DNA of 42,567 nt from a virus. Its lineage: Duplodnaviria; Heunggongvirae; Uroviricota; Caudoviricetes. The DNA lies in the IMG/VR virus record IMGVR_UViG_2534681936_000017, positions 1 to 42,567 of that record; one strand, written 5' to 3'. How positions within the stretch are numbered: the stretch's first letter is position 1; each line of letters opens with the position of its first letter. The notes below the pieces were generated by a model. That model was not told where the DNA came from and did not search any database. It was given only the letters and a program-made list of their open reading frames with translations. This document shows, in pieces, positions 3,100 through 42,157 of this stretch. The position numbers and the translations under genes are program-made.

Positions 3100-4295
3100 G
3101 ACTCCACCGTTATAACGATATTTTCCGGGGTACAGGACGCAGATTCGTTGTATCTGATATCAATGTTTGATGACGACAAAGCCCCCGGGGATTTCCCAAT
3201 CGTCAGTTCCTGAATATCGTAATAGCGTGCATTCCCGCCACTCACCACGCCAAGATTCGCCGGTGAGTAAATGCGACTTAAAAGGACCGAATCACCAATC
3301 ATCAGACTATTGATATAGTCGGAAATAGCCTGCTGGATCTGCTGCCCTATCTGTGAGGTATAACCCGTAAAAACTTTTAATTTAATCCGGGCATAAACAG
3401 GTACATCACTGGAACGCGAGAATTTGATTACATGGGGATTGCCGTATTTATCCGGAACAGTAACGGATGTTGTACCGTGGGTGGCTGTCCCCTGGCCTTT
3501 ATTCCCTCTGATAGCCTGAGCAATATCCGTCACATCACCGCCATCCACAATTACAGCAACAGAGTGTGGCGGTAACCCGTTACCGTCCTCCGAACCAGTA
3601 TCGTTTTCATAGATTTTGTGGCGGGTTACACCGGTAACATTAGAAACAGCACCATCCAGTGCTTCAAATGGGGTTATTGATGGCAACGCAACACTTTGCG
3701 ACTGACGGATACGTAACTCCGCGTCAGTTTCTGCCGAAGTGCCCACAGTAGCCGCAGCAGGATTAGTTACCGAAACCCAGCCACGGGTTGGCGTATTAAT
3801 TTCAGTGATAGTTCCAGCCAGCGCCGCCACTGCACCACTGACGGAACATGTTGCGGTCGCCATCACTGTACCATCCACGCCGACCACTACTGAAGCAGGC
3901 AAACGCCATATCACATTATTACTGTCTTTCACGCTGCCATTAATGATGGTTGTTCCGGCAGTTCCTGCAAGAAGCAAATCAACCGTAGAGTTCGTCGCGC
4001 CTTTACGTGAAATACCATTTATTTTCACGTTACTGGTCAGTGCAGCCCCATAGCCGGTTGCCGGTGAAAAACAGTTGTAGACAGTTATCGCCATATTATT
4101 GGCATCATGAATCGCCAGCGCCATCAGAGCCACCATCTGGCCGTCTTTGCTGTCCGGTTCGAGGTAGGCATCACTGCCATAAATCTGCTGAAAATAGCTA
4201 ATCAGGGTGCTGAGTATCGTCTGATAATCAGGCGCACTGATCCCCTCCGCGGTTACCTTTGCAGATAAACCGAGAGAATCAAGGTTCAGAGCCAT
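3096..4295 (-). CDS. Baseplate J-like protein
   Basis: 399 aa, synteny within a V-W-J-type baseplate cluster; Ala/Gly/Thr-rich beta-type sequence. Confidence 0.65.
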   Translation of the reverse strand: MALNLDSLGLSAKVTAEGISAPDYQTILSTLISYFQQIYGSDAYLEPDSKDGQMVALMALAIHDANNMAITVYNCFSPATGYGAALTSNVKINGISRKGATNSTVDLLLAGTAGTTIINGSVKDSNNVIWRLPASVVVGVDGTVMATATCSVSGAVAALAGTITEINTPTRGWVSVTNPAAATVGTSAETDAELRIRQSQSVALPSITPFEALDGAVSNVTGVTRHKIYENDTGSEDGNGLPPHSVAVIVDGGDVTDIAQAIRGNKGQGTATHGTTSVTVPDKYGNPHVIKFSRSSDVPVYARIKLKVFTGYTSQIGQQIQQAISDYINSLMIGDSVLLSRIYSPANLGVVSGGNARYYDIQELTIGKSPGALSSSNIDIRYNESASCTPENIVITVES

Positions 4296-4648
4296 TACGC
4301 CTCCGATGTAACAGTCGTTATTCCATAAAGAGTGTCGATTTCAGCGGAAAACATGACACGTCGGGTCGTGGTATCCACCGTCGTATTGAAAGAGAGGATT
4401 GATTTAACGCCCCGCGTTTCGAGGATGCGCTTACGGATCGCCAGGTTGTAGGTTTCAGGCTTCTGCTTACCGAGTACGGACTGGATCCACGGAGTCCCCT
4501 CGGTGGTGTCGAGAAACCATTGCCCATACCACAATTCGAATCGCGTTTTTACCGCCTGCGCCACGGCCTCCGGTGAGTTAATCAGCCAGGTGTCATCACC
4601 GCTGCCAAAGGTGTAATCGCCATCGGCGTCTTCACGTCTGTATCGCAT
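4295..4648 (-). CDS. Baseplate protein (gpW/gp25-like, putative)
   Basis: 117 aa, position between spike/V-like and J-like genes. Confidence 0.5.
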   Translation of the reverse strand: MRYRREDADGDYTFGSGDDTWLINSPEAVAQAVKTRFELWYGQWFLDTTEGTPWIQSVLGKQKPETYNLAIRKRILETRGVKSILSFNTTVDTTTRRVMFSAEIDTLYGITTVTSEA

Positions 4649-22020: not shown

Positions 22021-22569
22021 ATGAAGTTAGAAGATTTCGCAGCTTATAACCGCCCTCAATCTAAGGTGTCCGATGAGAGGAAATTTCTTGATTACATTCA
22101 CAGTCGGAACAGATGGGTTGAGTTTATCAAAAGCATCGATAACGCAAAGCCAGTATCAATTGCCATGAAAAATTCATTCCATAGTCAATGGGTTGAGTCT
22201 GGGGCCTTTATACGTGAAAAGATCAACGACGACTCAATTCTCCTCAAACTATTAACGCTCTTATTGCCAACATATGATGGTGACAGCCTTGTACTTTATC
22301 GGGGAGAAAATAAAGACAGGTTCGATAAAGGGCTCATTGGATTTTGCTGGACAACGGACATTTCAGTCGCCGAGAAGTTTGGTCGTGGATTGAATGCATA
22401 CAAATCACCAGGTTTGCTGTTAAGAGCTGAAGCTCCAGCCTGTTCTATATTAGCTGGCCCCAATGCCCACAGTCGTTATCTTGGTGAAAATGAGTTCACG
22501 GTTAACCCCTCGCGTCTTTCAAACATAACCGTTATTGAAACCTATCCGGACAACTCTTTTTTCAGATGA
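22021..22569 (+). CDS. Putative mono-ADP-ribosyltransferase-like protein (R-S-E type motifs), antisense moron between lysis and terminase genes
   Basis: 182 aa from ATG 22021 (RBS GAGGAAA). Motifs: LYRGE (R94), GFCWTTDISVAEKFG (STS-like, aa 108-121), YLGENEFTV (E156-x-E158). No signal peptide. Family call is motif-based inference only. Confidence 0.4.
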   Translation: MKLEDFAAYNRPQSKVSDERKFLDYIHSRNRWVEFIKSIDNAKPVSIAMKNSFHSQWVESGAFIREKINDDSILLKLLTLLLPTYDGDSLVLYRGENKDRFDKGLIGFCWTTDISVAEKFGRGLNAYKSPGLLLRAEAPACSILAGPNAHSRYLGENEFTVNPSRLSNITVIETYPDNSFFR

Positions 22570-23886: not shown

Positions 23887-24237
23887 TTACTCCTTATGGG
23901 CACCGAACTTGTTACCGATGACCCTCATTGCCGCACCACGAATAGCATCAACACCAATCAGCCCCACCCCACCACCAATGGCAACAGAAAGTGATTTAGG
24001 CCATCCGACATACTCAAGCGCGGATGCAAAGGTCAGCGTCAGAGCACCACAAAGCAGAATCTCAAGCGTTTTTCGTTTCCAGCCGCCGCCACCGCCAAAA
24101 TAGGCAATGCGCAAACCAGCCATAATAATTGACATAACCACTGCGCCCAGCGGCGTATCTCCACGCCACCAACTTTGTAAGAGCTCCAGTAAGTCAGGCC
24201 AGGAATGAGGGGCATTGTGCATTTTCATAAGCCTCAC
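23887..24237 (-). CDS. Holin (three TM segments, dual-start MRLMKMH)
   Basis: 116 aa, three hydrophobic segments, charged C-terminus, immediately upstream of the endolysin. Confidence 0.75.
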   Translation of the reverse strand: MRLMKMHNAPHSWPDLLELLQSWWRGDTPLGAVVMSIIMAGLRIAYFGGGGGWKRKTLEILLCGALTLTFASALEYVGWPKSLSVAIGGGVGLIGVDAIRGAAMRVIGNKFGAHKE

Positions 24238-24313
24238 CTCCGAGAGTTCGGATGGTGCTAAGTGTAAGATTCAGGCTCTCAGGCTTACTAACAAGAAGTC
24301 GAGGATATTTCCG

Positions 24314-24342
24314 GAGCCTAACAACGAAAAAGCCCCGGGACA
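24314..24342 (-). terminator. Rho-independent terminator (minus strand) between moron and holin
   Basis: gccccgg-N6-ccggggc hairpin followed by TTTTT on the minus strand. Confidence 0.4.
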
Positions 24343-24445
24343 TGCCGGGGCCAGATGGAGTGCCAGATTAAGCTTCTGGCGGTATATACTCGTGTTTGAT
24401 ATCGTTAAATCGCCAAAAGTAACAATTCAAACAAAGAGGATTTTT

Positions 24446-24607
24446 ATGTCTGAAAAAAACAAGCCACAAGGTGAAAATAAACCTCAGCAACCCGTGGCAC
24501 CAAAACCAACTCCAACACAAAGTACTGCAGACTTTGCTACACGTCGTGTTTTTGTTGGAGATTCTGCCGACTCAGTCATTGAACATATAAAAAAACAGCC
24601 GAGATAA
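24446..24607 (+). CDS. Small Pro/Gln-rich hypothetical protein (53 aa), convergent with the membrane protein gene
   Basis: Strong RBS AAGAGGA 5 nt before ATG 24446; MSEKNKPQGENKPQQPVAPKPTPTQ...; 3' end overlaps the 3' end of the minus-strand gene by about 30 bp. Below the track size cut-off as an independent ORF. Confidence 0.45.
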   Translation: MSEKNKPQGENKPQQPVAPKPTPTQSTADFATRRVFVGDSADSVIEHIKKQPR

Positions 24608-25145
24608 ACATCGCAGCTACCGGAGCAAGGATGGTATACATCCTTGCTTTATCGAGACTCGTGCGGATTTTCTCATTTTCCAACAGTAACTCTCTTGCTG
24701 TATCACTCAAGTCAACAAGGCGATACCTTCGTATAAGCGGCAATAACTTATCAGGTCCTAAATATCCTGCATCAGCGAATATTTTAAAGCTCGAGGGCAC
24801 CATATCCTTATATTTTTCATGATATAGATGATCAGGAGGGGCATTGATCAGGCCCCTAACCTTCACAGATAAACCAGTACATACCAAGTAAATGGCGCAC
24901 CATGTCCATAGTAATGTAAATGTGGTAATTCCAGCGGTGAGAAAATCGAAATTAGTTTTCTGTGTCAGCAATAAAAAAGATGAGCCAATTCCAACAATCT
25001 GAATGTTCAGAAGTTTGTATCCATTCTCAACATTGGTTTTGTTAGAAAGATGAATCTCTCGTATCGTCTCTTCCCCTTGTTTTTCAAGGTAATCGACGAG
25101 TTCATCATCTACTCCTAAAAAATAATCTTTAGGTAGTTCTCTCAT
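24576..25145 (-). CDS. Membrane protein of unknown function (moron between Q and holin)
   Basis: 189 aa, strong RBS GGAGGTGA; hydrophobic segments at about aa 45-60, 67-91 and 169-189; AT-rich locus with flanking terminators. Confidence 0.6.
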   Translation of the reverse strand: MRELPKDYFLGVDDELVDYLEKQGEETIREIHLSNKTNVENGYKLLNIQIVGIGSSFLLLTQKTNFDFLTAGITTFTLLWTWCAIYLVCTGLSVKVRGLINAPPDHLYHEKYKDMVPSSFKIFADAGYLGPDKLLPLIRRYRLVDLSDTARELLLENEKIRTSLDKARMYTILAPVAAMFISAVFLYVQ

Positions 25146-25254
25146 CTCACCTCCACATCCTGTACTGAAAACAATTTTACCAGAATGTCTCGATTCCAGG
25201 TATTCCGCCAGGAATCGCGCTCCAGAAATGAAACATCAGGTTCGCCAGTACCAG

Positions 25255-25282
25255 AAACAACAAAACCCGCTCAATGGCGGGT
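25255..25282 (-). terminator. Rho-independent terminator (minus strand) after the ORF6N-like gene
   Basis: cccgc-N6-gcggg hairpin followed by TTTTGTTGTTTCT on the minus strand. Confidence 0.4.
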
Positions 25283-25378
25283 TCTGGTAAAGTTCATGCG
25301 CTTGGTTCGCCTCGCGATACAGCTTTGCGAAGCGTACCGGAATTGAAGCAGTTTATGGCTAAAATTGCAAGAACTTTT

Positions 25379-25990
25379 TTAAAGCTGCATCAGCCTTTCC
25401 ACCAGTTTATCTCTGCGAACAACAAACCAACCATTGGCTCTCGCCAGTTCCAGCCATGACTCAAGGGAAATAACAATATCATCATCCCGCAACTGAATTG
25501 TGGAAACAGTGACACCGCCTCGCTGATAACAGAGAACTCGCGTGTCGTAACTTTTCTGGCATGAAGCTGGCGCTGACGGATCCTTTTGTCTGAAATAGCA
25601 GTCTTCCAGCTTTTCGAACACATCCCACGCCTGATCGGTTTCGAGCATTTTGGCATGACGGGCTGCTCCGCGTTCTGTCCAGAGGATGAGGGAGCGGGCT
25701 TTCGGGGAAATTTGTAACCCTCTTAAAGATGGTTGCAAATTTTGTGAGTTACTTAAAGTAACCCGCAAATTTTGTGAGTAGTTTAAAGCTACCCGCAATT
25801 CTTTAAGGTCATTACCAACAACTTTGAAAAAGTGTTTCCCTTCAACGAAGCGTACTTTGTTCTCATGATGATTCTGGCGAATGCGCACCGGCTCAGTGCC
25901 GTAAAGCTGCGCCAAAAGTTCGGTGGTAATAACAGGAATCTGGTTATGGGTGATCGGGGAGAGAGTTTCAACAGAAATTTGAGTTGTCAT
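25379..25990 (-). CDS. ORF6N/KilA-N-like DNA-binding domain protein (putative antirepressor-type) with internal 10-aa tandem repeats
   Basis: 203 aa; N-terminal IPVITTELLAQLYGTEPVRIRQNHHENKVRFVEGKHFF resembles the ORF6N domain pattern; repeats LRVALNYSQN / LRVTLSNSQN encoded by about 30-bp DNA tandem repeats at 25701-25810. Confidence 0.5.
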   Translation of the reverse strand: MTTQISVETLSPITHNQIPVITTELLAQLYGTEPVRIRQNHHENKVRFVEGKHFFKVVGNDLKELRVALNYSQNLRVTLSNSQNLQPSLRGLQISPKARSLILWTERGAARHAKMLETDQAWDVFEKLEDCYFRQKDPSAPASCQKSYDTRVLCYQRGGVTVSTIQLRDDDIVISLESWLELARANGWFVVRRDKLVERLMQL

Positions 25991-26146
25991 AATGACGCCC
26001 TCTGGTGGTTTCTTAATAACTCACCACCGACGACGCCAATCATCTGGTGGTGAACTGTGCAGGGTTGGCGTAACCGGGAAACCGACCGGCGCGGATCTCT
26101 CCGCCCCCACACAGCCCACCATAATTCAGATGTGCGCGTGCATACG

Positions 26147-26175
26147 ACAATAAAAAACACGCTCGCGGCGTGTAT
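26147..26175 (-). terminator. tR'-like terminator downstream of the late promoter
   Basis: Minus strand acacgc-N5-gcgtgt hairpin followed by TTTTTTATT, about 60-80 nt downstream of the predicted promoter. Confidence 0.5.
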
Positions 26176-26234
26176 CTGTCGCGGTCTCTATCCAGGACGC
26201 CAATCCCGACGCCAGATTTTGCTGACGCGTGAGG

Positions 26235-26264
26235 AATATAGCCCCGGATAACAGATTGAGTCAA
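26235..26264 (-). promoter_or_regulatory. Late promoter pR'-like (-35 TTGACT, 18-bp spacer, -10 TATATT); expected Q-utilisation region
   Basis: Hexamers read on the minus strand; -35 overlaps the Q stop codon, as lambda pR' sits just after Q. Confidence 0.4.
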
Positions 26265-26728
26265 CAGACGGTTTTTAGATCCCCGGAAGAGAATGCATCA
26301 CGCATCGGCAGATAGAGCATAAACTCTGCCATTTTCAACCACGCATCTATGCGATTACGGCACGTGGCGTAACACCACTCAGGGTGTGAATCATTCAGCA
26401 ATTCAGCCATTTTGCGCTTAGTCATCCCCCTCCCTTCATATCGTTGCCGGAGGATACAAATCAATCCTGGGTGTTCTGCCAGCACTTCACTAATCACCCG
26501 ATCAATGCATAACGCCTCTGCATCAGTACAATGCACCAGCCAGCTTTTTTGCTTGCCGTTGATCATATCCCGCAAAAAAGCCTCAAGCTCAGGTTTGTCC
26601 AGACCTGCTTTTTTCATCCTCCGGAGCGCCTCGTTAATTGCCGTTTTTGTCAGCTTTTTAGAGGTCAGCAACTGGTTGAACATATTCCCCGTCTTACCGC
26701 CACCAATATACGACCAGCGCCCCCACAT
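26261..26728 (-). CDS. Late-gene antiterminator Q (putative)
   Basis: Position upstream of pR'/tR' and lysis genes; start set at ATG 26728 (RBS AGGGAAA; MWGRWSY...) because the longer track ORF overlaps the upstream gene with Arg-rich junk. Confidence 0.55.
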   Translation of the reverse strand: MWGRWSYIGGGKTGNMFNQLLTSKKLTKTAINEALRRMKKAGLDKPELEAFLRDMINGKQKSWLVHCTDAEALCIDRVISEVLAEHPGLICILRQRYEGRGMTKRKMAELLNDSHPEWCYATCRNRIDAWLKMAEFMLYLPMRDAFSSGDLKTVC

Positions 26729-26811
26729 ACGTAGTTTTCCCTGAATCCAGACACTTTCCAGCGTAGTGAGACGAAGGTGTTCTCCGCTTTTTCCTGTATT
26801 CGTTGGGTAAA

Positions 26812-27102
26812 TCACAAATATCCCTCCTTTCTCCAGATTTCTTGTGTGCGAAAAACACCTTCTGCATGCATCAGGCGTAATTCTTCTTTGGTGTAATCGC
26901 TGGTTTTTACCCGCCCGTCGATTAGATCGTGGCATGAGCTACAGGCAATCGCCGCCTGCATATCGTGTGGTTTTGTCGCTGTTCCGCACGTTCCCGCCAG
27001 TCGGTAATGCGCCAGCACAGACGTTTCCGGATCGTGATTGCAGTAGCCAGGAATTCTGACGGTGCACATCTGCCCCCGCGCCGCTTTACGTAAATCCACC
27101 AT
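26812..27102 (-). CDS. Small Cys-rich zinc-binding-type Nin-region protein (YbcO-like, putative)
   Basis: 96 aa with several Cys/His (CNH, C..C, CSSCH); position upstream of Q. Confidence 0.45.
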   Translation of the reverse strand: MVDLRKAARGQMCTVRIPGYCNHDPETSVLAHYRLAGTCGTATKPHDMQAAIACSSCHDLIDGRVKTSDYTKEELRLMHAEGVFRTQEIWRKEGYL

Positions 27103-28262: not shown

Positions 28263-28418
28263 TTACTTCTCAGATTCGTAGTCTACGAAGACAGCGACCT
28301 CCGTCTGGCCGGTTCGGATTCGTACCTCGCAGAGGTCTTTCCTCGTTACCAGTGCCGTCACAATGACGGTTAAACAGATGACGATCAGGGCGATTAACAT
28401 CGCCTTGTGCTGCTTCAT
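28263..28418 (-). CDS. hok: Hok/Gef-family type I toxin
   Basis: MKQHKAMLIALIVICLTVIVTALVTRKDLCEVRIRTGQTEVAVF... is the Hok/HokD signature. Track ORF 28263-28475 extends upstream in the same frame. Confidence 0.85.
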   Translation of the reverse strand: MKQHKAMLIALIVICLTVIVTALVTRKDLCEVRIRTGQTEVAVFVDYESEK

Positions 28419-28439
28419 AGACTGCTCCTCCTTGCCTTT

Positions 28440-28540
28440 CGGCACGTAAGAGGCTAACCTATGTGTGTAGAGCATAGATATGGCCTCAGATTAATGTTAA
28501 GCGTCTTGCAGGACGCGTAATGTTAACTGGGGCTTTTCTC
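28440..28540 (+). ncRNA. sok: Sok-like antisense RNA (approximate placement only)
   Basis: Inferred from hok/sok locus organisation: antisense to the hok leader around the translation initiation region. Ends not determined. Confidence 0.3.
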
Positions 28541-28708
28541 TGTCTGCCTTACAGTGGCATGCCCGAGGCAGACAGCCTCAAGCACCCGCAGCAATTTTAC
28601 TTAACTCCCCTTTTCCCGCAAACCGTTTTTATCCCCAGCGGCAAATCGAATACACCACCAGCGCCACCGCCATTGCGATTCCTGCCGTTGTGAATGCTTC
28701 AGGCCAGG

Positions 28709-34512: not shown

Positions 34513-34750
34513 ATTCATTTCCTTACTGGTTGTGTGAGAACTTCAGTAAAGATACCACCAAAGCCCGGAGGTGGTGAAATAAAACCGGGCACAACACGAA
34601 GGCGCATTTCCGGTATTCATAAAGAGTCGGTCTTGTCTGTTAAATTTAAATGGTGGGAGTGCGCCTCCGGTTGTAAATAACGACATTGCTGTGTGTAGTC
34701 TTTAGCGGCATCAGTTCTACTCCGTGGCTGCCCTGCCGCCCCTTTTTAAA

Positions 34751-40027: not shown

Positions 40028-40222
40028 ATGCGGTATGAAAAAGTCAAACCATGTCCATTTTGTGGTTGTCCATCAGTAACGGTGAAAGCCATTTCAGGAT
40101 ATTACCGAGCGAAGTGTAACGGGTGCGAATCCCGAACCGGCTATAGTGGAAGTGAAAAAGAAGCACTTGCAAGATGGAATAAACGAACTACTGGAAATAA
40201 TAATGGAGGTGTTCATGTATAA
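40028..40222 (+). CDS. lar: Lar/RalR-like restriction alleviation protein
   Basis: 64 aa from ATG 40028; MRYEKVKPCPFCGCPSVTVKAISGYYRAKCNGCESRTGY... with zinc-ribbon cysteines. Confidence 0.65.
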   Translation: MRYEKVKPCPFCGCPSVTVKAISGYYRAKCNGCESRTGYSGSEKEALARWNKRTTGNNNGGVHV

Positions 40223-40403
40223 AATTACCGCCACTATTGAAATGGAAGGTGGCACACCTACTAACTGGACAAGATATTCAAAATCTAAATTAACGAAATC
40301 AGAATGCGAAAAAATGCTCTCAGGGAAAAAAGAAGCAGGCGTTTCCAGAGAGCAGAAAGTAAAACTGATAAATTTTAATTGCGAGAAACTTCTGTCCTCG
40401 TGA
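40215..40403 (+). CDS. Small hypothetical protein (YdaC position)
   Basis: 62 aa, RBS GGAGG 6 nt upstream; overlaps lar stop. Confidence 0.4.
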   Translation: MYKITATIEMEGGTPTNWTRYSKSKLTKSECEKMLSGKKEAGVSREQKVKLINFNCEKLLSS

Positions 40404-41880: not shown

Positions 41881-41998
41881 AAAAAAGACCGGAATACAGA
41901 AATTCGAGTAAATTTCGGGGGATTTCGGGGAGACGTTTGCAACTGATTGATTTTAAATACAATTAAAAAAAGACCGAATACGATTCCTGTATTCGGTC
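41881..41998. repeat. Candidate att arm region: direct repeats AAAAAAGACCGGAATAC (41881-41897) and AAAAAAAGACCGAATAC (41965-41981), tandem ATTTCGGGG x2 (41912-41930), 10-bp-stem hairpin (41972-41998)
   Basis: Repeats lie within 170 bp of the int stop, where arm-type Int sites are expected; core site not identifiable without the other prophage end. Confidence 0.3.
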
Positions 41999-42157
41999 CA
42001 GGGAAATGGCTCTTGGGAGAGAGCCGTGCGCTAAAAGTTGGCATTAATGCAGGCTTAGTTGCCTTGCCCTTTAAGAATAGATGACGACGCCAGGTTTTCC
42101 AGTTTGCGTGCAAAATGGTCAATAAAAAGCGCGGTGGTCATCAGCTTAAATGTTAAA

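Follow-up and report, generated by a model that had tools for sequence, protein, structure and literature searches.

A convergent two-gene cassette between the antiterminator and holin genes of lambdoid Escherichia coli prophages: a candidate membrane effector with an antisense-encoded small protein

In lambdoid phages, the slot between the antiterminator gene Q and the holin gene (Q-to-S) carries conversion genes such as stx, and the moron concept, which goes back to HK97 and HK022, denotes an additional transcription unit located between two genes that are direct neighbours in related phages. Convergent gene pairs overlapping at their 3' ends occur in prophage-like elements of Bacillus subtilis, where txpA/RatA and bsrG/SR4 are type I toxin-antitoxin pairs. 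Type I toxins are typically small hydrophobic peptides of less than 60 amino acids, and the antitoxin is a non-coding antisense RNA. The subject of this study is a cassette of about 0.9 kb (approximately positions 24321–25251) in the IMG/VR virus record IMGVR_UViG_2534681936_000017, which was analysed over its whole length of 42,567 nucleotides and is referred to as the window. The window represents a lambdoid (Rac-like) prophage of Escherichia coli with its phage genes on the minus strand.

A further arrangement of relevance is the 'noncontiguous operon' taiEcA/atiEcA of phage phi80, in which one gene is oriented against and the other one with the Q-driven late operon, resulting in opposite expression during lysogeny and lytic growth (PMC11364771). 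The cassette of the window consists of two convergent genes with the following core features:

24576–25145, minus strand: large gene, coding for a predicted inner-membrane protein of 189 amino acids (same open reading frame (ORF) as PGAP WP_001208723.1; phrog_11870)
24446–24607, plus strand: small gene, coding for a Pro/Gln/Lys-rich protein of 53 amino acids (phrog_14506)
24624–24648, plus strand: conserved RNA stem-loop, 17 nt past the stop codon of the small ORF and within the part of the large gene that codes for the third transmembrane helix (TM3), recognised by covariation

The cassette is a mobile two-gene prophage moron, which may comprise a membrane effector and its own restraint and serve exclusion, abortive infection or addiction. 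The probability of this reading is estimated at roughly 0.35. Two kinds of predicted elements were newly found here, namely a -10-like element at a fixed distance from the start codon of each of the two genes and the covarying hairpin at 24624–24648.

The large and the small gene overlap by 32 nt at their 3' ends (24576–24607). The original prediction, which preceded this analysis, had named a 189-aa ORF on the minus strand with a strong ribosome-binding site (RBS) and a converging 53-aa ORF on the plus strand with a near-consensus RBS and an overlap of about 30 bp. Both ORFs are present, with GGAGG 4 nt ahead of the ATG of the large gene and AAGAGG (24434–24439) 6 nt ahead of that of the small gene, which has a properly spaced RBS in all loci. 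Among 88 loci from genomes and viral contigs, the small ORF was intact beside the large gene in 86, with frame and motif retained and always in convergent orientation; the two exceptions show an N or a 1-nt deletion within a run of seven A residues and look like sequencing errors. The 3' overlap amounts to 20–35 nt in each of the 35 distinct enterobacterial loci, to which the counts of regulatory elements given below also refer. The pairwise identities of the large and the small proteins are correlated (r = 0.81). Furthermore, the pair persists in three distant relatives, whose large proteins are 34% (locus L089), 36% (L094) and 24% (L097) identical to that of the window. The small protein of L089 (MSNQKPSQPQPTPSKPQQPAYKKPEPVFVGDSVDIPKKK) has retained the VGDSA motif and the Lys-rich tail, and convergent Pro/Lys-rich ORFs occur at the corresponding place in L094 and L097. 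Judged by this comparison of sequences, both genes are real and are inherited as a pair. The earlier proposal of a regulator-like antisense partner is thus supported by co-occurrence, constant orientation, co-divergence and the covarying hairpin on the antisense strand.

The small protein matched phrog_14506 (E = 6.1e-33), a family of unknown function. PGAP places the start at GTG 24392, which yields a 'hypothetical' protein of 71 aa, while the start conserved between loci is ATG 24446 (53 aa). The 18 extra codons (24392–24445) overlie conserved promoter/leader DNA, and phrog_14506 (71 aa) carries the same extension; the annotated start should be shifted from GTG 24392 to ATG 24446. The lengths of the small proteins range from 47 to 56 aa between loci. 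Common to them are an MS-x-x-NKP start, a Pro/Gln/Lys-rich stretch, a DFxxxR-x-x-VGDSA(D/E) motif and a Lys-rich tail, and the net charge is positive in all 35 loci (+1 to +6). The predicted structure is mostly coil with a single short helix (residues 41–50) and a predicted template modelling score of 0.22, and the protein is predicted to be disordered. The small ORF has a median pairwise ratio of nonsynonymous to synonymous substitution rates (dN/dS) of 0.35, and its codons are most variable at the third position. The motif lies outside the overlap in a part where no other gene overlaps, so that the constraint acts on the small protein itself. The A7 run mentioned above (24452–24458, plus strand, codons 3–5 of the small ORF) is the sole site of difference in both 'disrupted' copies (L016 and L028); these differences are probably sequencing errors, and the run could also be a slippage site.

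Beside the protein, the RNA of the small-gene strand appears to be under selection. In the hairpin, 92% of the alignment cells are paired versus 35–54% in controls with slid partners. Compensatory changes occur in five of the ten pairs, some of them at synonymous sites, and none of 500 shuffles matched the observed covariation. G-U pairs (26) outnumber A-C mismatches (5), and in 26 of 28 sequences the structure is more stable on the small-gene strand (-16.2 versus -11.8 kcal/mol; z = -4.8). Because the hairpin covaries and is favoured on this strand, the small-gene strand is most probably transcribed past the stop codon into the large gene, with selection on the RNA structure, and the antisense strand would be functional as RNA. 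It is probable that the hairpin represents the 3' stem-loop of the small-gene RNA. A canonical intrinsic terminator of the small gene was not found in most loci, and no equivalent of the hairpin was matched by position in the three distant loci. A search against Rfam with a permissive threshold over positions 24150–26300 yielded no match inside the cassette. Base-pairing in trans between the leader of the small mRNA and the 5' region of the large gene was considered and rejected (median z = 0.08).

These data also bear on the question whether the peptide is made at all. If the small ORF were untranslated, the antisense RNA alone would act as a pure type I-like regulator of the large gene. The conserved hairpin on the small-gene strand and the conserved convergent overlap would fit such a role, as would the low complexity and disorder of the peptide. 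However, the reading frame is kept in 86 of the 88 loci despite lengths varying between 47 and 56 aa, dN/dS is about 0.35 with most variation at the third codon position, and the RBS is found at the right spacing in all loci. Moreover, the VGDSA motif and the Lys-rich tail are conserved even where the large protein is only 34% identical. An exclusively RNA-based regulator is therefore regarded as highly improbable.

The large protein was modelled by AlphaFold2 with a mean predicted local distance difference test score (pLDDT) of 84.7. The model shows long helices at residues 14–62, 68–92 and 134–188 and short helices at 104–125; the helix 14–62 is a cytoplasmic part running into TM1, and the helix 134–188 ends in TM3. 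Three transmembrane helices are predicted (TM1 at about 45–62, TM2 at 69–92, TM3 at 169–188). This agrees with the three hydrophobic segments claimed before, although TM1, which is Gly/Ser-rich, falls below a strict Kyte-Doolittle cut that TM2 and TM3 pass; it lies, however, inside a long and confidently modelled helix. The charge distribution suggests a topology with the N-terminus inside and the C-terminus outside and with hardly any periplasmic exposure. About 120 residues would then be cytoplasmic, forming an acidic N-terminal helix and a helical stalk according to the prediction. In all 35 loci, residues 1–44 carry a net charge of -4 to -11. Conservation is strongest in the acidic N-terminal helix (DYFLxxDDxLVxFLEKQGE), the Gly/Ser-rich TM1 (IVGIGSSFLLLTQ), PxxLY and RRYRL.

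Homologues of the large protein form 104 clusters at 90% identity, nearly all of exactly 189 aa and down to 42% identity, from Escherichia, Klebsiella, Citrobacter, Salmonella, Serratia, Yersinia, Proteus, Morganella, Providencia and Pantoea. When 1.8 billion representatives were searched exhaustively with a profile, just 98 clusters came up, all of them single-domain proteins of about 160–200 aa. Apparent domain fusions in longer relatives (215–390 aa) turned out to be mis-called extensions or repeats. The protein matched phrog_11870 over its full length (residues 1–189, E = 3.7e-107), which is a family of unknown function, and all 23 distant relatives that were tested matched the same family.

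The remote-homology search proposed with the original prediction was carried out, and no family was matched in Pfam, NCBIfam, PADLOC or PDB; the matches in PHROGs were confined to families of unknown function. Pfam, NCBIfam and PADLOC assigned no family to the two proteins or to 68 distant relatives of the large protein, apart from scattered Pfam matches at chance level in a few relatives. Neither protein matched a defence model of PADLOC-DB v2.0.0 at E ≤ 1. The large protein and the 68 distant relatives did not match the holin families of Pfam, and the prophage possesses its own lambda-family holin next to the cassette. Sequence and profile searches of the PDB gave matches at chance level only, Foldseek against BFVD gave no match with E < 0.1, and fold searches gave generic helical matches only. 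Kinship of the large protein with lambda RexB or SieB was ruled out (hhalign probabilities of 1% and 0.1%, respectively). No literature was found on either protein when accessions, PHROG identifiers and peptide strings were used as queries.

Around the two genes, the following regulatory elements were recognised:

25251–25286, minus strand: upstream intrinsic terminator (stem 25261–25286 plus T tail; 10-bp stem with 6 GC pairs, T-rich tail), a boundary of the cassette and not part of it
25174–25182, minus strand: predicted large-gene promoter, recognised by reading of the sequence as an extended -10 (TGGTAAAAT) that lies 28 nt before the ATG and lacks a good -35
24397–24439, plus strand: predicted promoter/leader of the small gene with TGATATCGT (extended -10 type, 24397–24405), the TAAATCGCCAAAAGTAAC block (to 24424) and the RBS, by conservation across loci
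24362–24380, strand not assigned: palindrome GCCAGA-N7-TCTGGC, flanked by the promoter of the small gene and the downstream terminator, with arms that are altered yet complementary elsewhere (GCCAGT/ACTGGC, GCCGC/GCGGC)
24321–24352, minus strand: downstream intrinsic terminator of the late strand (stem 24331–24352 plus T tail; 8-bp stem with 7 GC pairs), between the cassette and the holin gene

A promoter-like -10 of the large gene scored positive in 31 of the 35 loci, and almost all of these are TAAAAT-like hexamers 33–41 nt before the ATG. For the small gene, TGnTATnnT occurs 46–53 nt upstream of the ATG in 29 loci. Its promoter/leader block is the best-conserved non-coding stretch, also across loci whose large proteins are only 50–60% identical. 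An interpretation of this block as a promoter or qut-like element of the late strand was rejected, as no acceptable -10/-35 pair was seen on that strand by eye. The palindrome may serve as an operator, or else form a second hairpin within the 3' untranslated region (UTR) of the large-gene transcript. A late-strand terminator was found to precede the large gene in 25 loci and to follow the promoter of the small gene in 26. In L089, two near-identical units (3440–3520 and 4260–4380), each with a promoter (TTGACA-17-TAAGAT) followed by a terminator, lie ahead of the homologue of the large gene and ahead of the next gene; their layout suggests antitermination-controlled expression.

The strong conservation of the small-gene promoter is also compatible with reversed roles of the two proteins. 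In the lysogen, the small protein would then act as a peptide of defence or host modulation, and the large protein would be a late counter-measure on going lytic, when the small gene is silenced. The layout fits that of taiEcA/atiEcA, with an opposite-strand gene within the Q-driven operon (PMC11364771), no other non-coding element of the cassette is as well conserved as the promoter/leader of the small gene, and the small-gene RNA bears a 3' stem-loop under selection. On the other hand, the small protein of about 50 aa is disordered and has no fold of its own, it shows no sequence relation to known defence proteins, and a membrane protein would be an odd antidote to a cytoplasmic peptide. In addition, the large gene seems to have its own predicted promoter. 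Such a reversal of roles is considered unlikely.

The location of the cassette was compared with related prophages. Its neighbours are as follows:

26261–26935, minus strand: gene of a DUF1133/Q-type antiterminator (Pfam)
25379–26241, minus strand: upstream neighbouring unit, given as context only, with isrK/C4/c4-a1b1-like RNAs (26043–26241; Rfam, above gathering scores) and an ORF6N anti-repressor gene (25379–25990; Pfam ORF6N, E = 5e-19)
23887–24228, minus strand: gene of a lambda-family holin, the next gene downstream, with which the lysis cassette begins, given as context only (Pfam Phage_holin_3_1, E = 2e-27; PGAP)

With coordinates descending, as in late transcription, DUF1367 and DUF1364 genes come first, followed by Q, isrK/C4 RNAs, ORF6N, terminator, cassette, terminator, holin, GH24 lysozyme and spanins. 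The prophage of E. coli AH19B041 (L091) has the same Q, isrK/ORF6N unit and lambda-family holin; about 350 nt of unrelated sequence replace the cassette. As this closely related prophage has an empty site, the cassette is a true moron. Identity between L091 and the window picks up at 25252, directly past the T tail of the upstream terminator, and for this reason the terminator was assigned to the neighbouring unit and the cassette delimited at approximately 24321–25251. The accessory location between Q and holin, as predicted originally, is therefore confirmed, except that the cassette does not directly follow Q, from which it is separated by the isrK/C4-like RNAs and the ORF6N gene (25379–26241).

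The claim of an insulated unit holds in part. Hairpins are present on both sides, and each gene has a conserved promoter-like -10 according to the prediction. The terminator placed at 25255–25282 is the same element as the hairpin 25286–25261, but belongs to the neighbouring unit; it would end either the isrK/C4-ORF6N unit or a tR'-like late leader. The second terminator, placed at 24314–24342, corresponds to the hairpin 24352–24331, and the former span covers its T tail (24321–24330) and half of the stem. The AT-rich character is also evident, with a GC content of 0.38–0.43 over 24350–25249 versus about 0.50 in the flanks. Strain HN68 carries a Rac-like prophage (L093) in which the cassette directly follows Q, and only a promoter-like site (TTGGCT-18-TATATT) and the same terminator intervene, which together look like a pR'-tR' leader.

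The cassette region is 100% identical in the strains FDAARGOS_946 and O55:H7 DEC5A. Approximately 223 of 5426 complete E. coli genomes (about 4%) carry the cassette. It was found in five of 50,697 phage records, four of which are E. coli phages with about 98.6% identity in the cassette region, and on two plasmids. The cassette is almost confined to temperate phages and prophages and is absent from the virulent phages of this collection. In Enterobacterales, it always lies between antiterminator and lysis genes. The antiterminators upstream belong to three families (DUF1133, Phage_antitermQ and Antiterm), and the holins downstream to at least five Pfam families (holin_2_1, holin_8, holin_3_1, holin_3_7 and holin_3_3); the endolysins vary, too. 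Among the distant loci, L094 has the slot among tail genes, flanked by a tail-assembly chaperone gene upstream and the tape-measure gene downstream, with genes of a PemK toxin and a lipoprotein alongside, and in L089 and L097 the relatives of the cassette lie in early or immunity-type regions. In E. coli NCTC9041 (L092, position 3104), a truncated copy occurs, in which the identity to the window stops at 24493 within the small ORF; it is fused to a DUF1367 pseudogene, and the large gene is deleted.

This distribution could likewise be that of lysogenic-conversion cargo outside of phage-phage conflict, with a membrane protein that alters the envelope physiology of the host (stress tolerance, transport or virulence-related traits) and a small gene that is an ordinary regulator. 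The Q-to-holin slot is known for conversion genes such as stx, the cassette occurs in about 4% of the complete E. coli genomes, from many hosts, and no defence model was matched. However, the modelled protein is nearly without periplasmic exposure and matches no transporter or enzyme family, and a strict convergent pair with antisense overlap would be unusual for simple cargo. A role as conversion cargo thus also appears rather improbable.

If the cassette encodes a membrane effector and its restraint, the following mechanism might apply. In the lysogen, both promoters would fire weakly and face each other. A large transcript running to the terminator 24331–24352 would have a 3' UTR fully antisense to the small mRNA, and the small RNA would cover the final approximately 73 nt of the large coding sequence. 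The RNA duplex, transcriptional collision and the basic peptide, which would bind the acidic cytoplasmic portion of the large protein, would together keep the effector low or inactive. This balance would be tipped by Q-antiterminated late transcription sweeping through the cassette or, alternatively, by an infecting phage that stops host transcription, whereupon the labile peptide and RNA would decay. The freed membrane protein would then act on the inner membrane. As a result, superinfecting phages would be excluded or their infections aborted, or there would be post-segregational addiction. A more far-reaching proposal is that the pair is the first example of a new prophage system of the toxin/antidote or abortive-infection kind, which belongs to Enterobacterales and has related pairs elsewhere among bacteria. 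It would combine a three-TM effector with a dual-function convergent gene, which provides both an antisense RNA and a disordered basic peptide antidote of about 50 aa, as a type I/type II hybrid wired into Q-dependent late transcription. This proposal is tentative and somewhat doubtful.

Several observations weigh against an effector with its own restraint. With 189 aa, the large protein is far larger than type I toxins, and neither protein showed homology to a known toxin, defence or holin family in the Pfam, NCBIfam, PADLOC and PDB searches. The hairpin is called a 3' stem-loop and not a proven terminator, as no consistent U tract comes after it. In the loci L002, L059 and L005, the upstream terminator abuts the RBS and no -10 element is present, which fits mainly late expression. 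Furthermore, all enterobacterial loci examined keep the same slot and late-operon orientation, as would fit a protein produced chiefly in the late lytic phase.

The latter two points lead to an explanation in which the large protein is a late-function accessory, produced mainly from Q-antiterminated late transcripts together with the holin and acting in the lytic cycle of the phage itself. It might influence lysis timing or holin triggering, or block DNA entry or re-adsorption late, and the antisense gene would only silence leakage in the lysogen. Consistent with this, the lysis genes directly follow the cassette in all enterobacterial loci examined, most loci, distant ones among them, have a terminator shortly before the large gene, some loci lack a -10 between terminator and RBS, and L089 has a full promoter and then a terminator ahead of the large gene, a typical layout of antitermination control. 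However, the association with at least five unrelated holin families and several types of endolysins indicates no co-evolution with one lysis system. Related prophages manage without the cassette, distant relatives are not located beside lysis genes, and virulent phages of the collection lack it. The -10 element at a fixed distance in 31 of the 35 loci also argues for Q-independent transcription. A late function is regarded as doubtful, and the membrane effector with its own restraint remains the preferred reading.

Upstream of the cassette, the segment 25379–26264 (minus strand) is a unit of the P1 c4/Gifsy-1 isrK type, with a promoter-like site (TTGACT-18-TATATT), matches to c4-a1b1, isrK and C4, a terminator (26157–26173) and the ORF6N gene of 203 aa. 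It may double as a pR'-tR' late leader for Q proteins of the DUF1133 type. In Gifsy-1, the gene order is antQ-isrK-orf45-anrP-isrJ (PMC4825925), and this organisation is the same as that of the Q, isrK/C4-like RNA, ORF6N and terminator block of the window. The Gifsy-1-like unit is a neighbour only: the cassette starts past its terminator, and L093 has the cassette without that unit. Downstream, the ORF of the holin opens with MRLMKMH (24222–24237, minus strand), whereas PGAP starts at MKM; this resembles the dual-start motif of lambda S107/S105.

A lone opposite-strand gene of 182 aa (22021–22569, plus strand; 'hypothetical' in PGAP) is located between the lysis/spanin genes and the gene of the small terminase. 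It breaks the late operon just upstream of the packaging genes, in a layout as that of taiEcA in phi80 (PMC11364771). Its product had no match in Pfam and a PADLOC match at chance level only. Other regulatory RNAs detected by Rfam in the prophage or at its edge are hok/sok (28263–28587, minus strand), DicF (34690–34741, plus strand), the RalA antitoxin RNA (40221–40399, minus strand) and SraC/RyeA with SdsR/RyeB (41961–42105, both strands).

The cassette is widespread, with about 4% of the complete E. coli genomes and relatives in nine further enterobacterial genera, while both proteins are annotated just as 'hypothetical'. Its well-defined architecture, with two conserved promoter-like elements, a covarying hairpin in coding sequence and a protein-coding antisense partner, makes it a compact and clonable unit of about 0.9 kb. 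If it is a defence or addiction module, it would represent a new family of membrane effectors and clearly exemplify a dual-function antisense gene; if it is a late-lysis accessory, it would be a widespread unrecognised player upstream of holins of many families.

In comparison with described systems, the cassette resembles the lambdoid morons in its lower GC content, its own promoter-like and terminator-like elements, its presence/absence polymorphism and the Q-to-holin slot shared with stx. It differs from them as a strictly paired convergent couple instead of a single gene; there is no homology to a characterised moron product, and the upstream terminator is that of the neighbour. Lambda RexB and SieB are likewise small multi-pass inner-membrane proteins of temperate phages, but their gene context and partner gene are unlike those of the cassette and the profiles are unrelated.

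The cassette is not a member of the phi80 tai/ati, type II or convergent type I systems. With taiEcA/atiEcA it shares the opposite-strand arrangement of a gene pair in a late operon (PMC11364771). Sequence similarity is lacking; the antisense gene of the cassette codes for a disordered peptide of 53 aa and the sense gene for a membrane protein, and the site is upstream of the holin gene and not of the packaging genes. From type II toxin-antitoxin systems it is distinguished by genes that are convergent and not co-directional and by a small protein that is predicted to be disordered, without a recognisable DNA-binding fold. Compared with txpA/RatA and bsrG/SR4, the 189-aa protein with three TM helices and a cytoplasmic stalk is not a small toxin peptide, and the antisense strand is not a non-coding antitoxin, as it encodes a conserved protein under purifying selection. 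In common with these type I pairs, the cassette has a prophage-borne gene of a membrane protein, a convergent partner overlapping at the 3' end and a structured 3' stem-loop, and the hairpin supports an additional role of the small gene as RNA.

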